DNA of 64,000 bases, taken from positions 992,001 through 1,056,000 of the forward strand of contig MU004190.1 in assembly GCA_010093605.1 (NCBI GenBank), in the 5' to 3' direction. Positions 24,479 through 35,819 of this stretch are shown in pieces. A program made the translations under genes and the position numbers. Source of the DNA: Lophium mytilinum (Eukaryota). The notes below the pieces were generated by a model. That model worked only from the letters and a program-made list of their open reading frames with translations. It made no database searches and was not told the DNA's origin. Every line of letters begins with the position of its first letter. Within the stretch, counting starts at the first letter, position 1.

Positions 24479-26534
24479 ATGGTTCGCGGTCCGGTTGGTG
24501 TCTTTGGAAGCGCTGCCTCGCGACCGACGCTCGAAATCCTGTACGTACCCATGTGCCTACCGCGGTACCAACTTTTCCCGCGACCATCGTGAAGGAACCG
24601 AAAGCTGACTCCCGACCGCCAGACCAGACTCTCCCTTCGTTGTGCTCTATGGCCTCCCCTCCGAAGCCCAGCAGGTCGAGCTCACCGGCAAGCTCGTCCT
24701 CACCAACCACGAGTCCATGGCCGTGAGGGGCATAAAAGTGAATTTATCCGGCATGCGCAAGGTCTCGTACGTACCCGGACCACCACCGCAGCTCCACAAT
24801 CCACTCGCGCCGCCTGCTGACTTTGTGCCCCGTCGCACTGCAGGTGGATGACCAACACTGTGACTCCGCAACCCATTGTGTCTAAGCGGACCTTCCTGAA
24901 GGAGGAGGTGAATCTGTTCCCTGCTGACGGTGTGAAGAATAAAGCTCACAAGATTAACCCGGGAGTCCATGAGTGGACTTTCAAGTTTACCATTCCGGGC
25001 GATGCGGATGAGAGTGTCGAGGGGCTGGTGGGGAACTACATTGTTTACAATCTGAATGCTGTGGTGGATAGGGGATATATCTCGAAACAGATATGTGCTA
25101 CTCGGCACATTCGGATCGTGCGGACGCTGGGGCAGGACCTCATGGAGTCTGTGCCCATGGAGCAGGTAAGCTGTCCAGAGAAGGATAGGAGAGTCAATTG
25201 CTAATACGGAGTTGCAGATCAACGAAGATATCTGGGGCTCAAAACTGGCCTACAAGATCACCGTTCCGCAGAAAAACTACATCATCGGCACCTCGATCAC
25301 AGCTGACTTTGTACTGGTGCCTCTGCGGAAAGGCGTTGAGATCACCACCATCAAACTGGAGGTAATAGAGCATATGGTCCTGGCCAGCGAGTACACCGGC
25401 CGCACAATCTCACATTCGAGAGACCAAGTCGTGGCTTCGACAGAGGGCAACATGCCTGCGAATTCGGCAAATCTCGTTCCCGACGACGTCGAAGAGGGGG
25501 ATGAGATGTTCGACGAGTCACACCGCTTCTCGATGACCCTGGAGCTCCCTCGATCATTAAAGTCCTGCAGACAGTCGGTGGACACGGATCACATGAAAAT
25601 CGTGCACAAACTGCGGTTATACGTGAACCTGCACAACCCCGAGGGGCACACGAGTCAGGTCAGTAATGTTGTCGAGAGTACAATGGAGACAACTTCTAAC
25701 TTTTGGCAGCTTTTGGTTAAAAATCACCTCCACTTGTTTATCTCACCCAATCTTCCGCCAAATGAGGACCAGAGCGTGCTCATCGATCACAACATAATAT
25801 CGTCCAATGCTTTGCGAGATGAGGCGAATCAGACTGCCCCTCCTTTATACGGACTACATCAGCTTGATGAGCTGTACAATGGCATTGATACCAGCGGCTT
25901 CATGACCCCTGGAGGCGCCAATAGCGGACTCAACACACCCTTCTACAGCCAAAGTCGAAGTGGATCCAATGAGGACATCCCAACAACGCTTGATGCGGTT
26001 GCACACGAAGATGGCCCTGGTGCCTCTGCCAGTGCCCTCCACACCCGTCTCAGCAACCTGAGCATGGCTCAAAATGGCCGGCAAGCCCGGTTCATTCCGC
26101 CTCACAACGCAGATAGGAGTAGATCATATCACTCCTCCGGAAACAGCACACCTCACACTGAAGACCAGGGCAGCAGCAGCCAACCCAACAGCTACCGCTC
26201 TGGTAGAGGCTACTTCGACATGAGGGGCAGCGCCAACCCCGCCGAAGAGTCCGGGTCTCCCGAGTACAACATGGAAGCTCTGTCCAAAATCCCCAGCTAC
26301 AACACCGCCGTCCGCACTCCCGCCCGCACCCCACTCAGCGAGAACCTCCCCACCTACGAGATCGCAACAAGTAGACCCGCAAGCCCTGCCCACACTCCCC
26401 GCAGCGACCACAACACTCCTTCCCCCGCCCGCAGTCTCGACACCCTCACCGAGGAGACGGAACGCAATACTGAGCTGAACTCGCGGCGGGCTTCACCTAC
26501 GCGTGAGGCCGCTGGGTCCGGCGAACAGAGGTAA
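24479..26534 (+). CDS. creD: Alpha-arrestin, HECT ligase adaptor CreD/Rod1-like; multi-exon; may extend to 26704
   Basis: Arrestin N/C segments (LTGKLVL, HEWTFKFTIPGDADESVEG, IRIVRT, EDIWGSKLAY, HKLRLYVNLHNPEGHTSQL); PY-type motifs PPLY, IPSY and LPTY; adjacent to creC. Confidence 0.88.
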
Positions 26535-28665
26535 TGCCGCCTTTTGTTTATATTCCCAAACAAACACACATATTCCCAATGTACCCCTTTTCTACCCCCA
26601 TACTCCACTCCTGTACCCCAATAATCACATCACCTACCCCTATCTTGTACAGAAAAGAAAGACCCCGCGTTAAACGCTGGCGCTTCCCCCGGGCGCGCCT
26701 GTAGACCGGCCTCGCAGCTGTCCTCACCGCCACAGGGGGTCGCCGCAGCTGACGCCTCCACCACCACTGCCCCCCAATTTTTCACGGACGAACTACGCTG
26801 TCTCCCGTCGTCGTTCCACGCCGTCTTTGATACCCATCCCCACCTCCATCTCCACCCCCGTGCCCGCTCCCACAGTTCCGCTTCCGCTTCCGCTTCTACT
26901 ACCACTATTCTCTTCGTTCATTCCGCGCTTAAGAGGGCTTTCGGCTCACGCCGGTATACGCAATAGCTTGCTACCACCAATACCACATACACTACATCAA
27001 CTAGACCATCAACAACAACAACAAATACAACAACCTCAACAACAATCTACAAATCTACCCAACCTCTCCCCTACCCCCTCCAACTCCTCAACCGCCAGCA
27101 CCGGCACGCGCTCCTCAATCGCCTCGTCTGCGTCGGCGTCGAGCACGTCGCCGCCCCCCTCCCCCACCGCCGCCGCGCACAAATTCCGCCGCGACATCCT
27201 AGGGAGGCGGAAACCTCGCGCGGCGGCCGTAGTGCCGGGCGGCGGGTTCTGGGGCGCGGCGGCGCATTTCCATCAGCAGCGGCATGCGCATTATGCGCGT
27301 GAGCCGCCGCGGTCGGCGCCGGGGTCGCGGCCGGGGAGTTCGCAGGAGAGCAGAGTCACGTTTATGGTTGCGGAGGGGCCGAAGGTGGAGAGGGTGGAGG
27401 AGGGGGCCGTGAGGGCGGAGGTGGGGGATTAGGGTTTGGATTAGGGGAAGGGAGAAAGGGGGTTGAAAGTACAAGGGTTTAGGGGGGTTGCATCAGGTGG
27501 AGTTTGAGGATAGGGAGGTTTTATGAAATGTTTCAATGAGCGGGTGGGTGGGTAGATTTTGGACTTCCTAGCATTAGCGGTCAGGGGCGATACCATTATG
27601 CACTTTTTTCGATTCTTCAGAGGATGGAATGAAGTGATGCGAGTTGAGTGAGGCTTTGTGATTGTACGAAGCACGTGCTCGACGCAGGTGGTTGTGTAAC
27701 CCAGGCGGCTATTTTCTTCACTTTCGTGCGTGATACCGCGTTCGGCGAAGACCCCCGAGCAGTAAACAGAACAGAACAAAATACTGATTAGGCGAGGGTG
27801 CTGGCCATTAAGGAGGGTCCACGTTCACATGCTCAGAGCATCGTTTCTCGCCCATCTCGGATTCTTCAAAAGTGTCTACTTGCACATGCTATTCACATGC
27901 TTCTCTCCCCTTTCCACGCATTCGCAAGAGAGTCTAGATCAGGGACCCAGCACGTCGCGTCGGCTGCCTATTTCCGCTCTTGCACAATCCAGGATATGCC
28001 TATGTTTGACCACCGCTCGATTCCGCGGCTTCCGATGCACAAAGCAGCCATGCAGCCCAGCAATCTGGGTTCGGGAACGACGGCGGGTCATCAGTGGCAA
28101 GGAGGCGCGCGTCGAGTCCGAGGCGATGTGCAGATGAGCTGCTGGGGGGGTTCGGAGAATTGCTGAGGGGACGCAACGGGCATGTTCGGAATGAGGGAGC
28201 GGCAGTGTATGTGCGCAAAAGAGAAAGTCCAGCCTTTGCCCTGTGGTACTACATAGCTCGGTTCGAGGTTCGAGATGCGTTCGGACAATCCTAGATCCTA
28301 GATAGCAGCGGGTCGGCCCGGCTGGTGGCTAGTTCGGCCGATTTGGAGACCGTAGGTCGGCTGACGAGGGGTGGTGAGAGGTGGGGTAGAATGGTGGAGC
28401 GATGGGTCGATGGGGCGATCGTTATGAGAATCGGAGAGCGGTGAGGTGGGTGGGTGTTGGGATTCCGAGTTGCCGTGATGCCGTACCCGTACCCGTAACG
28501 AGCTTTGCACACAGATGGTTTTCGCGCTGGTTTCGAGGTGGAGGTTCAGATCTGTTTTCAGGGCAGGAGATTGCTGTGGCGGTGCATTCGATCCGGGGTA
28601 TTCTCGTTTAGTTCCCATTTATCCCAGATATATTTGTATTCGGTTGGAAAGCGAGCTTCTCGATC

Positions 28666-30145
28666 TCAGCTCTCGAATAGAAGCCCAGCTGCGATCTCTA
28701 CGTTCCCGTCCGTCGCGTTTAGAGCAGCCACGGCCTCCTGTCTCGAGAATCCTATAACTGTGAGTGATTCGATTGATTCCGCAGGCCAGGAAACGGGCGG
28801 GGTGGGCAGAGAGGCGATGATTTGACCCAGATTTGCCCCAGACAGCCCAGGTGCTGTGGAAGCTGGAGGGTCAGGCGTCCGAAGAACGGTTCCTAGACCG
28901 CCGACCCATCCAGCTTGTCCATCGGCGCCGTTGCTTATAGCCTGGAGATGGGCTTTATCCTCACCACCACCGGCATTGAAATACTGCAGCTAATATTAGC
29001 GAAATCCACACGAGTTTTCATCAGTCGGACTCCTCGAAAGAGAAAAACATAAGATGTTCCACTTACCTCCCACCCCATAACGCCCCCAAATCCCTCCCCA
29101 CGGTCTTTATACCGTGCCCGTAAAAGCCCCAGTACTTCTCTTAGCTTGGCTAATCCCACATACCCTGCCCCGTTACCCGGATTCGTAACTACGCCCACAA
29201 CCACCTTGCGGGGATGCCACCCGGCCGCTACGATAGCATCGTACCACTGAGTGCTCCCCGCATCGCCCCACCCGCAGTAGAACTGCGTGTTGTACCAACT
29301 AACCTCCTGTCCAGCCGGCGAGTTCTCGAGAGCCGGGTAGCTGAAGCCTGAGAGGTGCGGGAGAGTGGGGTGGAGCGGGTTTGGCGTTGGATTTGGGGAT
29401 AGAATGGGCCGTGGGTGGAGATGGGCATGAGCGGGATCGGGAAGGAGAGCAGTCGCCACGGGAGCGAGGGTGATAAGGAATTCGGGCCCGAAGTCAGTTC
29501 GGAGACGATGGATAAGGCGTTGGGCTGTGGCGAGGGAGATTTGTTCTTCGACGTCCAGATCTAGACCGTCGAGGGCGTGAACACATATGATATCGTGGAG
29601 GGGCCGGTAATAGGATTCGAACTATTGGGTGTTAGGTAAGCTCTAGGTGCGATCTAGCAGGTGGAGGGTTTGGAAATAGTGGAGTTTGCTGTCGAGGGGT
29701 GTGGAGTGCTTCGAATCTCTATCCCGCACAGCACCATGAACGAGGCTTCGACCCAATCTCCGCTCTCTTTCTAGCCCTCTCGTAATCCGCCCTTGAAAAG
29801 AGACAAAGCACTCACACTCTCGTCGCCCCCACTCAACCTCTCAAAACTCCCTCTCGCAGCACCGCCCAGCATCCCTAGCACCTTGACTCCAGTCCCCTGT
29901 AACCACTTGACCTCGCTCCACAGGGTCTTAAACTTGTCGGCGCTAGGCGGATTATCGTTGAGTGTGATGTTCCCGGGGCCTTCATTGAGATGGATCGCAG
30001 CGACTATAACGTGTGTGACGCCAGTGTTTTGCGTGATGAGGGGGAGGAGGGAAATTGGATTGCCGCTACCATCGTGGTGGGTTTGGGCATAGAGGACCAG
30101 TCGCGGGCCCATGTGGTGAGGGAGGAGGGTTTGGGTGGGCGGCAT
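28666..30145 (-). CDS. Cytosolic GH18 endo-beta-N-acetylglucosaminidase-like protein with C-terminal UBA domain; 3 exons
   Basis: RLVLYAQTHH, VTHVIVAAIHLN, LGMLGGAARGSF, catalytic DGLDLDVEE, WYNTQFYCGWG, GGVMGWE|YFN; no signal peptide. The last exon, missed by the ORF track, ends WPAESIESLTVIGFSRQEAVAALNATDGNVEIAAGLLFES*. Confidence 0.88.
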
Positions 30146-30685
30146 GGTCGTTGTTATGCGTCTGGTAAGCTGCGAATGAAGCTGGGAGGTTGTGTTGTGC
30201 AGGAGGGGAGATGGTGGCGTTCATCCCTAGCTTCGTAAGGCTGAGTGTGGGGTTGGGTCTGAACTTTACGAGATGCCAGGGTCCGCAACACTATTTGAAC
30301 ATCCTGTGATATTCCACTGGTGGCGAGGTTGTCCGGTCTATCATAGAATATGGTGAGTTAGTTCATGCAGCAGTAGTCAAGCACTCTGACGAACACTGTG
30401 TGAGCATCACGTTCATGAAAAGGTAGGACGTCTATCCAAAACACGAACTAGTTCATGCAATTACAAAGTAAAGAGTGCGTGAGACTACTCCACAGAACCC
30501 AAAACGCCCGGTGCCAGCCTCACTTCCGTCCCATGTGTGAGCCATCATGCATTGAGGCATAATTGAAACAGCAAACCCACAGCTCTACCGAGTCCCATCC
30601 CACCCTGCAGCTATGCCCAAGAATGCCTACCCCCAGAACTCCGTAACTGCAACATCATCATCATATTCGCCTTGACATAAGAGCA

Positions 30686-31859
30686 TTAATGGTAGCCATT
30701 GTATGGCGCTCCAGCGTAGCCGGCCGGGGGCTTGCCGGTGAAGTATGGGTGGATCACTGCTTGCTTAGCTGAGATACGACCGGCAGGATCATAGACTAGG
30801 AGAGCGTCGAGTAGATCAAGGCCAGCGTCATCTAAGGTGGTAACGACAGTCGCAATGTCCGTCCGAGGCCACTTAGGGAAAGAAGCTTTGAAGTCGGGGA
30901 ACGAAGTGACACCCGGCCATTCAGCTTCAGTCGGCGTTCCGAGGACGCTGTATATAGTTAGAGTTTATCTCAATGTGATAAGTCGGTATGACATACCGGA
31001 AGATCTTGAAGATCTCGTCGATCTCCGAGTCACCAGGGAATAGTGGTTTCCGCGTGCACATCTCGGCGAAGATGCAACCAACCGACCACATGTCGACACC
31101 GGTGGAATATTGGCGGCCACCCAGCAGGATCTCCGGAGCGCGGTACCAGAGAGTGACAACCTATAACATATTAACATTCTGCCTCGTACTCCGATAGTAA
31201 GGACCAGTCGTACCTCATGCGTATAAGTCCGCAGGGGCACGCCAAAAGCCCTCGCCAAACCGAAATCCGCCAGCTTCAAATTGCCATCCTTGTCAATCAA
31301 CAGATTCTGCGGCTTCAAGTCGCGATGTAGGACCCGGTGAGCATGGCAGTACCGAATGCCCTCAACCAATTGTCCCATGAACTTCTTGACCATGTCGGGT
31401 CCCAGGCCGAGAGTCTGAAGCGCGGCTCCAGTGCCGTCGGGGAGAGCCTTGCCACGACCACCTTGGTTCACCGGGAGCGCCTCCATGTACTTCTTGAGAT
31501 CCAAATCGAGGAATTCGAAGACGAGATATAGCTTGTGGCCATCGGCGTGGACGATGTTGAAGAGGCGAACGATGTTGACGTTGTTCATCTCTTTCAGGAG
31601 GGAGATTTCTCGGATTGCGGTGCTGGGGACGCCTTCATCTTCGGCCTCTAGACGGATTTTCTTGAGCGCGACAATGCGCCTGTCCTTGTGCGTGAGGTCG
31701 ATAGCTTTGTACACGACTCCGTAGGTGCCTTATTGCGAGGTAATGTCAGCATTGAGCTCATGTAAACATCGTGGACTCAAAGGTCCCTCGCAAGGCTTGA
31801 GCTGTTAGAATTGAAATCTTACCCTCTCCGACCTTCTCCATCTTCTGGTAGTTCTCCAT
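30686..31859 (-). CDS. CDC28: Cyclin-dependent kinase 1 (Cdc28/Cdc2/NimX); 4 exons
   Basis: [72 protein letters not shown]. Confidence 0.97.
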
Positions 31860-32426: not shown

Positions 32427-33699
32427 ATGCCTCAAACCCCCTCGGCGCCTCTCAATCCTCATGAGAGGCCTCCGGAACAGGTTAAAAATGTCTACAAAAC
32501 CTATCAAAAGATGAAGCCAAAGGAGCTAGCTGTAGACCCAGACATCATAGACTTCACGAGAGGACTATCCGAAATTCAGCGCGCATCTATCAACGTCATT
32601 GAAGAAATTGACCCTAAGAAGCTCAACGAAGCTTTCCGCGACTTCGAAGGTATCGAAAGCAGCTCCGGCGACGAGATCACAACACCCATTCGAGTGTACG
32701 AGCACTCAAATATGCCAGGTAAAGCGCACTTCCCTCGCACTAGCTTCGCGGCTATCGCTTTCCTTCCATCTCTTCTCATAGTCTACTGCTGTATTTCTTC
32801 TCATAATCTACTGCTGTATCTCTTCTCATCCTCTACAGCTATGCCTTACTTCTTGTCCCCCAATTCTGAAACAAAAAGCACACTCCTCATCTATCAACCC
32901 CTAACACACACCAGGCCTCCACATCCTCCCCTCCCTCCTCCCTCCCTCCACCCAACGCCTCCTCCTCACCCGCCTCCTCCACCGCGACCTCAGCAACCCC
33001 ACCCACCTCACAAACATCCACACCCACTACACCCTCGCCTACCCCCCTCCAACCGCCTTTTCCCCAACCCCCTCCCTCTTCACCCACCCCCCAACCTCCC
33101 CCCTCCCCATCGCCGTTCCTCTAGACCCTAGCATCCACCGCCCCTTCCCCGCCCACCCCCTCCTCACCCGCAAACTCCGCTGGCTCACCCTCGGCGGCCA
33201 GTACGACTGGACCGCGAAACGCTACCCACTGTCCCCACCCCCGCCGTTCCCGCCCGATATCGCCGCGCTCCTCGACTCTGTCTTCCCGGAAACGCGGCCA
33301 GAGGCTGCGATTGTGAATCTGTATACGCCGGGGGATACGCTGAGCGTGCATCGCGATGTGGCGGAGGGGAGCGAGAGGGGGCTGAGCTCGGTGAGTTTGG
33401 GGTGCGAGGGGGTTTTTGTAGTAGGGTTTAGTGGGGAGGGGGAGGTGGGAACGGGGGGGACGGTGTTGACGTTTCGCTTGCCATCGGGGAGTGCGGTGTA
33501 TATGAGCGGCACAGCAAGGTGGGCGTGGCACGGGGTGCCGCAAGTAGTGGCGGGGACGTGTCCGGGTTATTTGGCGAATTGGCCGGCGGAAGAGAGGGGA
33601 AAGGATGGGGAAGACGCGGAGGGTGGAGAGTACGAGGCGTGGAGGGGGTGGATGGCGAACAAGAGGGTTAATTTGAACGTGAGGCAGATGTGGGATTGA
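32427..33699 (+). CDS. AlkB-family Fe(II)/2-oxoglutarate dioxygenase (ALKBH1/Abh1-like); 2 exons
   Basis: Intron 32719-32914; LLHRDLSNPTHLTNIH, KLRWLTLGGQYDW, AIVNLY, HRD, WAWHGVP, KRVNLNVRQ. Divergent from CDC28. Confidence 0.9.
32771..32845. repeat. 25-bp tandem repeat (~3 copies) inside the AlkB intron
   Basis: tcttctcatagtctactgctgtatt / tcttctcataatctactgctgtatc / tcttctcatcctctacagctatgcc. Confidence 0.75.
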
Positions 33700-33930: not shown

Positions 33931-35819
33931 CTAGTACGCACCCGGCTTCCCCTCGATTCCAGACTTAGGCTGTGAAATCGCGCTCGCAGGTGTAGCACTG
34001 GCTGGGTGCGCACTGCTCGGGGTCTGGTGCAGCGTCTCCTTCTCCATAGCTAGGTTCTGCGTATTCAAAGGCGCAGGCTGCCTGGACTCAGTCGGACTAA
34101 TAGGGCTGTTCGGGGAAGAGGAGTCAGGTAGCTCGTTTGTCGTCTGGCCAGCAGCGGCTCTGATAATCTCCCACCACTGGTTCGCGTCATTCGGCGTGTG
34201 AGCCTTGAATGCGAACTCGTGGGACATGCTGAAGGTGTTTCCGACCTTCCCTTTGCTGACGTCCTTGCCCTTAACATTGAACTTCTGCCCGGAGCACGCG
34301 CCGACGATGCAGTCGGGAAGGTACAACGAGACTTCCGGCGTGGGGTCTTTGGCGAAATCGTCGTCGGTCTTGAACTCGTGGAGGAACTTGGAAGGTGTGA
34401 CAACATAGTAGTTGGTGTCGTACTTCTTGAGCAGCTTGCCCTTGCGCTCAAGGGATCCCGCAATCATGGGCTGCGTAGCCTTGTGGTTCTGGTTCGGGAA
34501 GCTGATGTTGGAGATGGAGCGAGCAGGGGCAGAGGGATTGATTAGGATGCCTTCTTCGCGGTGGATGAAGCCGTTCCACTCGAAGTCTGGTGCGATGGAT
34601 TGTGTCGTCATGGTCATGTCGGCGTACATGGCCTTGGTCTGCTCAGCCTGCGCGGCGAGGACCTGGTTGAAGGAGCCCCAGCCCTGCTGCACGACAGCAA
34701 TGACGTGCGCCTCGAATTGCGCGAAGCTGTTCTGCACTGCGATAAGGTCCTGGCGGTTGTTGTTCTCCTCTTGGATCTGCTTGTTGAGGCGATGCATCAC
34801 GCCGCGTTGGAGGACGTAGGGGTCTTCGGTGGCGCTCATCTTGCCGCCGGTGGAGTCGTAGCCGGCCGTGTGCTGGCCTAGAAGTTCAATATGCTTCTGG
34901 GTTGTGTTTCGTGCCTTGTCCACCAACTTGCTGCCTTTGCCGGCACCCTTTGTAAGCTCCTTCTGCTTGTTTTTTATTTCAGTGTGGAGGCGTTCGAAGA
35001 TGGGGAGGATGGTGCCTTTTAGTTGCTTTGCGGTGTCGTAGTGGGAGTTTGAGATGCCCTGCATATGTCAATAACTGCCGTGTCCTATCATGGTAGAGGT
35101 ATTACCTGTGTGTTTGACCTGATGTTGTCGAACATGCCTGCAACGCCGCCGAGGCTCTGGTTGAACTGTGTACCTTCTTTCAATGGGCTAGAGACTGCCT
35201 ATCATATTGTTACTATACCCAGACGTTGCTCAGGATCGAGCTGGACTTACCTTGAGCACTTTCTCGTACTCCTTCCCGTGAGCATGCTGCATCTTCTCTG
35301 TCGCGGTGACATAGTCTTCTATATAAACGACAGCGTGCTTCCAGGCCTGAAGCCTCGTATTGAACAGCTTGGTCACCTGTTCGAACCTTTAGCTTTCAGT
35401 CCAATCCAAGAAGAAATTCCCATCCCCTGAGAAGGAAAGAAAGAATCGGCGGGCTGGGCCTTGAATGGAAAAGTGACAGTTCCCTCGGTTTGTGCAGCAG
35501 CAGCTACACCTACACGTTCAAGAGCAGCCCTGTCAAGTTCACTTTGCTTCTTGTAGCTGAGAACTGGAGATGCCCCGCCATCAGGCTCTTCCGGGGTATC
35601 AAACCACTCTTCAACCGGTTGGGCGCCGTCACCTTGTCCATAGCAATCCACGCGCACCGAAACCTTTGTAGACTTGAGACGAAAAGGAATAGCGATAGAG
35701 CCCTGAGCTCTCATCCGGCGTACCTCGCTGGTGTCCTCGCCGGGTACAGCGTCTTCCTCGCTGCCGTTCGAGAAGGTCCGTGATGGTAGCACAGACTGCT
35801 GAGGTGATGTCGCTGCCAT
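33931..35819 (-). CDS. Slm1/Slm2-like BAR-PH domain protein; 4 exons
   Basis: Helical N-terminal region (RLQAWKHAVVYIEDY, EDPYVL) followed by a PH domain: GSLERKGKLLKKYDTNYYVVTPSKFLHEFK..PEVSLYLPDC..FAFKA..WWEII. Confidence 0.82.

Follow-up and report, generated by a model that had tools for sequence, protein, structure and literature searches.

The window studied here, a 64,000-nucleotide stretch of Lophium mytilinum DNA (assembly GCA_010093605.1, contig MU004190.1, positions 992,001 to 1,056,000 of the forward strand; positions below are those of the window), carries on its minus strand, at 28666-30145, a three-exon gene for a protein of 400 residues that joins a glycoside hydrolase family 18 (GH18) barrel to a C-terminal UBA domain. 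The results showed that this combination is the normal state across Dothideomycetes and that the window gene is an ordinary member of its orthologue group. By analogy with its relatives, the barrel most likely belongs to a cytosolic endo-beta-N-acetylglucosaminidase (ENGase). Homology makes it somewhat probable, in our judgement, that the UBA domain serves as a ubiquitin reader tethering the enzyme to ubiquitinated substrates of endoplasmic-reticulum-associated degradation (ERAD).

A contig of run X1 (2455 nt) matched the gene with no mismatches, spanned all three exons and joined position 28983 to 29067 and 29621 to 29816. The gaps in the alignment had CT..AC ends on the plus strand, which is GT..AG on the strand of the gene. 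Since it lacks the two canonical introns, the contig therefore derives from spliced RNA or cDNA (the X1 record itself does not state RNA). The exon junctions are in phase 0 throughout. The annotated 'glycoside hydrolase' of Mytilinidion resinicola (P0005), likewise of 400 residues, aligned with the window protein exon by exon and without a gap, 382 of the 400 residues (95.5%) being identical, with 106/110 identities in exon 1 (P0005 residues 1-110) and 175/185 in exon 2. Its junctions, GGDES/FESYY at intron 1 and GWE/YFNAGG at intron 2, are those of the window gene. Six bases upstream of the acceptor used there is a second, in-frame one (TAG, 28990-28992, minus strand), the use of which would insert Leu-Gln and was seen neither in the X1 contig nor in P0005. 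The protein begins MPPTQTLLPHHMGPRLVLY and ends with the peptide WPAESIESLTVIGFSRQEAVAALNATDGNVEIAAGLLFES, followed by the stop codon (28788..28666), exactly as an earlier note on this DNA had quoted it. That note had taken the last exon to be real and spliced in, as the contig and P0005 confirm; of the splice junction that it placed at ~29065-28984, the 28984 end stands and the other end lies at 29066.

By sequence and predicted fold, the C-terminal tail is a true UBA domain. When exon 3 of the window gene was scanned with Pfam, residues 68-99 matched the UBA family (PF00627) with 29.9 bits (E 5e-7) against a curated cut-off of 22.4, and the closest solved sequence match of the tail was the UBA domain of yeast Ddi1 (2mr9; E 1.7e-5, 41 aligned residues). 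Exon 3 modelled alone, with 38 aligned sequences, was predicted to form helices at residues 68-76, 81-90 and 95-104, with a predicted local distance difference test (pLDDT) of 86-89, after a disordered linker. The Foldseek list obtained with this model consisted almost wholly of UBA domains, including those of Ddi1 (root-mean-square deviation (rmsd) 1.2 over 40 columns, 48% identity) and Mud1 (rmsd 0.4). A second fold search, independent of Foldseek, gave matches at Z 7.6-5 to the UBAs of NAC, EDD, USP5, Dsk2, Ede1 and hHR23A, to TS-N domains of EF-Ts, and to the UBA of Ddi1 bound to ubiquitin, where 2mro_B superposed with rmsd 1.6 over 43 residues at Z 7.2 and 44% identity. A loop of the form hydrophobic-Gly-Phe/Tyr between helices 1 and 2 is a conserved feature of UBA domains; the window tail has Ile-Gly-Phe at this place, with a conservation of at least 90% at both G373 and F374. 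Mean column identity in 34 orthologues was 0.72 for the UBA, 0.76-0.77 for the catalytic parts and 0.47 for the linker between barrel and UBA, which is flexible, about 30-55 residues long and poorly conserved.

The N-terminal part, of about 300 residues, is an Endo T-type GH18 barrel. Full-length P0005 matched the Pfam GH18 family (PF00704) with 35.2 bits, the cut-off being 29.6; the GH18 exons of the window gene, scanned singly, remained below that cut-off (15.1 bits) because intron 1 splits the domain. When solved structures were searched with phmmer, Aspergillus fumigatus 'ChiC' (2y8v; E 4.6e-84) and Endo T (4ac1; E 4.3e-66) were found, and the next GH18 chitinase followed only at E 6.7e-10, so that the nearest kin are Endo T-type enzymes and not chitinases. 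The AlphaFold2 model of P0005, made with 34 aligned orthologues (mean pLDDT 83.6), comprised a complete (beta/alpha)8 barrel, the first strand of which begins at residue 15, and then extra helices; in Foldseek it gave target template modelling (TM) scores of 0.90-0.91 on 2y8v and 4ac1. D131, D133 and E135 are invariant in the 34 orthologues, and D133 and E135 align with D129 and E131 of Endo T, which are reported as catalytic (PMC3408457). A Pro/His-rich loop insertion at residues 170-198, modelled with low confidence (pLDDT 58-64), is present in Pleosporales- and Mytilinidiales-type orthologues and absent from Dothideales orthologues, 2y8v and 4ac1.

No signal peptide, transmembrane segment or anchor was recognized: within the first 32 residues, the best Kyte-Doolittle mean over 9 residues was 0.86, compared with 2.1-2.8 in relatives with evident signal peptides, and the barrel opens with its first strand as early as residue 15. 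The signal-peptide calls used throughout come from this crude hydropathy heuristic, not from a dedicated predictor, and misclassify some proteins. From the absence of a signal peptide by this rule we infer a cytosolic location. The enzyme is thus most likely a cytosolic ENGase of the fungal Endo T or 'B5' group of GH18, with an activity like that of its orthologues gh18-10 and Endo T. The earlier note had expected both GH18 and UBA on the spliced protein and had described a UBA as in Ddi1/Rad23 C-termini, an intact DxxDxDxE motif and no signal peptide, and each of these points was borne out, with P0005 as the full-length stand-in for the GH18 score and the hydropathy heuristic as the basis for the last.

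The distribution of the architecture was followed in a nearest-relative set, the 120 best of 891 matches among longer proteins with exon 2 as the query. A hidden Markov model (HMM) of the family tail matched 115 of the 120, always at most 12 residues from the C-terminus, the proteins without a match being P0036, P0071, P0072, P0073 and P0091. Automatic annotation had already given 89 of the 120 a Pfam UBA-type label. All the named matches in the set were Dothideomycetes, and the orders covered were Pleosporales, Mytilinidiales, Patellariales, Botryosphaeriales, Venturiales, Dothideales, Capnodiales-type and Trypetheliales. In the protein atlas, two clusters with 65 and 145 members were labelled UBA (85-86%) plus GH18. 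Thus, the architecture is not peculiar to the window gene, as had been supposed at the outset, but a class rule in Dothideomycetes, and it is already known in the sense that both domains are automatically annotated on hundreds of proteins in public databases.

Representatives at 50% identity (the 150 best of 437) were scanned with Pfam at thresholds of 1e-3 and 1e-4. The Pfam UBA family matched 16 of them (15 at or above the cut-off), and the family-tail HMM matched 25. Other GH18 partners in the same 150 representatives were ankyrin (P0133/P0214), PhoD (P0154), Peptidase_A4 (P0162), GH20 (P0256), F5/8 type C (P0157) and ricin B (P0200/P0252). Some of these combinations may be real (lectin modules, GH20), and others may be merged gene models.

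None of the 120 Sordariomycete orthologues listed with a Purpureocillium query, several Trichoderma proteins among them, had a Pfam UBA label or matched the family-tail HMM, and the N-terminus of these orthologues is of the same kind as that of the window protein. Their acidic tail (P0131, P0292-P0410) holds a conserved short motif, which in its strict form, F[DE]Y[YF][ST]D, was present in 82 of the 120 listed; the remaining tails mostly read FEYHSD or similar. This aromatic-acidic motif may be an alternative docking motif, and we know of no described function for it. Eurotiomycete proteins of the cytosolic type (~320 residues; Aspergillus, Penicillium and Thermoascus) have a different helical tail and no UBA, the pattern ..S[LM]SMGMKEV....L.DMMNQ.. 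being common to P0493, P0501, P0502, P0503, P0505, P0509 and P0515.

A diverged UBA-like tail without the Gly-Phe loop occurs on secreted relatives in several fungal classes, and this observation is new. Six representatives, from Cercospora (Dothideomycetes), Atractiella (Basidiomycota), Drechslerella (Orbiliomycetes) and an Oidiodendron cluster (Leotiomycetes), matched the family UBA HMM weakly (E 5e-7 to 6e-4), and two of them open with clear signal peptides. An HMM made from these six tails recovered 146 proteins that the cytosolic UBA HMM also finds; since detection is reciprocal, the secreted-type and cytosolic tails are therefore homologous. With the Atractiella protein as query, 53 of the 120 relatives listed carried the tail. 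Tail carriers with signal peptides (P0198, P0223, P0180, P0435-P0450, P0458, P0480 and others) were found in Leotiomycetes, Lecanoromycetes (Icmadophila), Orbiliomycetes, Eurotiomycetes (Rasamsonia), Dothideomycetes (Meristemomyces, Zymoseptoria and Cladosporium) and one basidiomycete. The consensus of the secreted-type tail is approximately P.PF...L...GA.HFEAVRALN.T.GD..AA, in which the Gly-Phe loop is lost. None of seven such tails matched PF00627 at E ≤ 5, and one UBA_RAD5A match was obtained at E 0.25. When 198 tail-bearing proteins were sorted by the crude hydropathy rule, which makes the counts rough, the Gly-Phe loop was present in 88 of the 109 with a complete N-terminus and no signal peptide, in 0 of the 14 with a signal peptide, and in 41 of the 75 fragments.

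A GH18-only tree was computed for 60 of 544 proteins (named and mostly full-length; others were left out) under LG+C20+F+G4 from 293 columns, with a single Streptomyces outgroup row as the root. Each sequence was cut 4 residues after GxxGWE, and the tail therefore cannot influence the tree. All tail-bearing proteins fell within a clade of 40 rows (support 97/94). Besides a Corynespora paralogue that has no tail, this clade held all 19 cytosolic UBA proteins and 20 secreted ones. The latter, of which 13 bear the UBA-like tail and 7 do not, formed a subclade (100/100) that has a long stem (0.59) and is nested among the Dothideomycete cytosolic proteins (99/88 and 95/96). Outside the tail clade were the cytosolic UBA-less Sordariomycetes (100/100), Aspergillaceae-type Eurotiomycetes (100/100), Exophiala, Orbiliomycetes plus Xylona, and the Endo T-like secreted Sordariomycete proteins. 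This tree implies a single origin of the tail and descent of the secreted clade from a tail-bearing form. That secreted proteins of several classes fall within a single class is at odds with the species tree; long-branch effects, hidden paralogy with losses, or transfer could account for the conflict.

Two further observations concern the secreted proteins. Atractiella rhizophila P0223 (Basidiomycota) has Leotiomycetes as its closest listed relatives (54% identity to Claussenomyces) and falls within that group on the tree; its placement could reflect gene transfer or a contaminated assembly. The idea that the C-terminal peptide cleaved from Endo T corresponds to the UBA-like tail was considered and found to be unsupported, as the Endo T-like Sordariomycete proteins P0160 and P0520 match neither tail HMM.

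If the UBA is a ubiquitin reader, it would bind ubiquitin on retrotranslocated, ubiquitinated glycoproteins and would thereby concentrate the ENGase locally at ERAD substrates, the N-glycans of which would be trimmed to a single N-acetylglucosamine ahead of the proteasome. The Dothideomycete ENGase would be the counterpart of Eng18B and gh18-10, standing in for an inactive peptide:N-glycanase (PNGase) in ERAD, a role that may be extended to the window enzyme by analogy. Retention of the Gly-Phe loop in the cytosolic forms and its loss in the secreted ones fit a ubiquitin-dependent constraint, and a UBA that is conserved nearly as tightly as the barrel, next to a linker that is not, fits a tethered ubiquitin reader.

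Several points weigh against such a role. The UBA is the sole ubiquitin-system part of the protein: Pfam scans of the three exons and P0005, with E up to 1 and 0.1, found no ubiquitin-like (UBL) or other ubiquitin-family domain and no other proteasome-docking domain. Therefore, nothing suggests that the enzyme itself docks on the proteasome, although by itself it could reach ubiquitinated substrates. The homologous tails on signal-peptide-bearing relatives show that the module has, or has acquired, a use without ubiquitin, or at least survives without it. Where tested, the cytosolic orthologues of Sordariomycetes and Eurotiomycetes work without a UBA, so that the family can fill its ERAD role without this domain. 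In Foldseek, the exon-3 model had no matches at E ≤ 0.001, which is usual for a helical domain of 40 residues, and the Z scores of the second fold search, all below 8, are middling; the UBA assignment therefore rests on sequence and fold together. The hydropathy rule under-scores P0223 and P0439, which have evident signal peptides and fall below the threshold in one or other version of the rule. The suggestion of the earlier note that the enzyme may work without a Rad23-type adaptor goes beyond the evidence, given a UBA but no UBL or evident means of docking on the proteasome; another possible ligand of a UBA is the UBL of a shuttle factor. With a GH18 barrel as its N-terminus, the protein is not a member of the UBL-UBA shuttle factors (Rad23, Dsk2 or Ddi1 type), and it may act beside such factors.

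The UBA might instead act in cis, stabilizing or regulating the enzyme (by protection from degradation near the proteasome, docking on its own barrel, or dimerization) and not reading substrates. We consider this unlikely, though still a serious contender. The C-terminal UBAs of Rad23 and Ddi1 are reported as intrinsic stabilization signals, and some UBAs dimerize. A cis role would suit the presence of homologous tails, spread over several classes, on secreted relatives in a compartment where ubiquitin is absent, and the single clade of tail-bearers on the tree, which suggests that the tail travelled with the barrel through the change of compartment. However, the secreted tails have diverged and are not equivalent, as the Gly-Phe and PF00627 counts given above indicate, whereas in the cytosolic tail the canonical signature is as tightly conserved as that of the catalytic domain, and a long, poorly conserved linker suits a tethered reader better than a fixed intramolecular contact. 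It is also conceivable, but distinctly improbable in our estimation, that the UBA binds a UBL or another partner in the degradation machinery, such as a shuttle of the Rad23/Dsk2 type or a Cdc48 cofactor, so that an adaptor would still be used via the built-in domain. The protein lacks a UBL or proteasome-binding part of its own, the UBL-bound UBA of Dsk2 (2bwe; Z 6.7, rmsd 1.9 over 43) is among the fold matches, and yeast Png1 is described as acting through Rad23, which ties it to the proteasome route (bioRxiv 10.64898/2026.03.25.714127). Nevertheless, nothing here separates a UBL from ubiquitin as the ligand, and the closest solved UBA by sequence, that of Ddi1, was solved with ubiquitin itself (2mro).

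We give practically no credence to the explanation that the fusion is an artefact in which two genes, or a mis-spliced model, have been joined. The locus is often mis-modelled in databases, and 19 of the 120 nearest relatives are fused to the adjoining cyclin-dependent kinase (CDK). However, the zero-mismatch X1 contig covers all three exons with both introns gone, P0005 was annotated independently with the same junctions, and the tail recurs at the very C-terminus throughout the nearest-relative set; short of a chimeric contig, X1 and P0005 refute an artefactual fusion. The ubiquitin-reader role can also be set within a wider scheme, possible but on the doubtful side, in which the C-terminal appendages are class-specific targeting modules (the UBA in Dothideomycetes, the aromatic-acidic motif in Sordariomycetes and an amphipathic helix in Eurotiomycetes) and the secreted ENGases descend from a UBA-bearing cytosolic enzyme, with the UBA as a relic. 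Under this scheme, a single polypeptide would do in Dothideomycetes what the Png1-Rad23 pair does, and the relic in the secreted clade would have found another use or would be decaying outside the cytosol.

In filamentous ascomycetes, the cytosolic PNGase is described as catalytically dead, and the deglycosylation of ERAD substrates is presumed to fall to a GH18 ENGase (bioRxiv 10.64898/2026.03.25.714127). A canonical UBA conserved across a class that includes many plant-associated and black-yeast species would be a concrete and testable answer to the question of how the ENGase finds its substrates and, if the reader role is true, could tie sugar removal directly to the protein-disposal tags of the cell. 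The UBA-like relic would be a rare instance in which a domain of the cytosolic ubiquitin system has entered the secretory pathway, and would offer a natural experiment for telling ubiquitin-dependent UBA features from the others; together with the class-specific C-terminal appendages it is of moderate evolutionary interest. A literature search, with subscription journals and supplements outside its scope, found no paper linking GH18 ENGases or chitinases with a UBA domain. The accessible parts of the Neurospora preprint (bioRxiv 10.64898/2026.03.25.714127) and of the Eng18B paper (PMC3346758) mention neither ubiquitin nor UBA and do not take up how the ENGase recognizes its substrates.

A gene for a CDK1/Cdc2-type kinase (Pkinase E 2e-35) is the immediate upstream neighbour in the same orientation, covering 30437-31729 of the minus strand and sequence further upstream. 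Fusion of the ENGase gene with this gene was rejected, as the two are covered by different contigs, that of the kinase ending at 30437 and that of the ENGase beginning at 30175, indicating separate transcripts. The kinase-GH18-UBA fusions in databases look like annotation errors, which the locus yields recurrently in genome annotation, and several of the unfused proteins in the nearest-relative set are misnamed 'cyclin-dependent kinase'. At the other end, the transcript contig runs ~1.2 kb past the stop codon, to ~27444 by record length, and ends just beside the end of a convergent open reading frame on the plus strand (26674-27432). Six open reading frames in 27441-28618, under the 3' part of the contig, matched no Pfam family at E ≤ 0.01; the stretch 27444-28665 may be a long 3' untranslated region, an overlapping convergent transcript or a non-coding RNA. 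The remaining neighbours, included in the table, have no evident functional link to the ENGase.

Positions of the ENGase gene, its parts and neighbouring genes in the window (residue numbers are those of the full-length protein unless exon 3 is named)
Feature	Position	Strand	Remarks
Exon 1	29816..30145	-	110 aa; ATG at 30145; donor GTGAGT; N-terminal part of the GH18 barrel
Intron 1	29622..29815	-	194 nt; GTGAGT...TAG; removed exactly in the X1 contig
Exon 2	29067..29621	-	185 aa; core of the GH18 barrel; donor GTAAGT
Intron 2	28984..29066	-	83 nt; GTAAGT...CAG; GCTAAT branch-like site; removed exactly in the X1 contig
Exon 3	28666..28983	-	105 aa + TGA
Catalytic motif DGLDLDVEE	29544..29570	-	D128, D131, D133, E135
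Pro/His-rich loop insertion	29358..29444	-	residues 170-198, ~29 residues; alignment gaps and low pLDDT
Exon 3, first 65 aa	28789..28983	-	end of barrel region, two post-barrel helices (invariant Trp321), Pro/Gly/Ala linker
UBA domain	28669..28788	-	exon 3 W66-S105 = residues 361-400; predicted three helices, Ile-Gly-Phe loop, C-terminal AAGLLFES
Stop codon TGA	28666..28668	-	read from the sequence
5' untranslated stretch	30146..30175	-	up to the end of the transcript contig, which is not a mapped transcription start
Arrestin_C-domain protein	25170-27432	+	neighbour
AlkB-like 2OG-Fe(II) oxygenase	32905-33699	+	neighbour
BAR-PH protein	33931-35067	-	neighbour

The characterized enzymes closest in presumed function are Trichoderma atroviride Eng18B and Neurospora crassa gh18-10. 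Like the window protein, they have an Endo T-type barrel, a proline-rich N-terminus and no signal peptide and are presumed to replace the inactive PNGase in ERAD; unlike it, they are single-module enzymes without a UBA and lie outside the tail-bearing clade on the GH18 tree. The paper on Eng18B speaks of 'a single GH family 18 module', reports no signal peptide and gives the motif DGLDLDVE, identical to that of the window protein (PMC3346758). This description and the Sordariomycete orthologues listed above, none with a UBA, agree with the statement in the earlier note that the characterized cytosolic ENGases of fungi consist of a catalytic domain only. According to the Neurospora preprint, gh18-10 is a cytosolic GH18 ENGase that removes glycans from RNase B and takes the place of Png1 in the RTL assay for ERAD in yeast, and Neurospora PNG1 is catalytically dead and genetically uncoupled from rad23 (bioRxiv 10.64898/2026.03.25.714127).

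Endo T (Eng18A) of Hypocrea jecorina (4AC1) shares family and fold with the window protein (TM 0.91), the catalytic Asp and Glu being aligned. It differs in being secreted and in losing a C-terminal peptide of 43-46 residues (PMC3408457). The closest solved structure, A. fumigatus 'ChiC' (2Y8V; TM 0.90, 48-49% identity), has a cytosolic-type N-terminus, but its solved chain of 290 residues has no UBA. The yeast Png1-Rad23 pair is a functional analogy only, in that a cytosolic deglycosylating enzyme is tied to the ubiquitin-proteasome route. Png1 is an amidase with a transglutaminase fold and another chemistry, and the link is made via a separate adaptor or, in mammalian NGLY1, via a PUB domain that binds p97, and not via a built-in UBA. 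The UBA of Ddi1 (2MR9 / 2MRO) is likewise C-terminal and resembles the window tail in predicted fold (rmsd 1.2-1.6) and sequence (44-48% identity), but Ddi1 has a UBL and a retropepsin domain, whereas the UBA of the window protein is joined to a glycosidase without a UBL. Mytilinidion resinicola P0005 and the Dothideomycete entries carry precomputed Pfam UBA and GH18 annotations and are in substance the same as the window protein.

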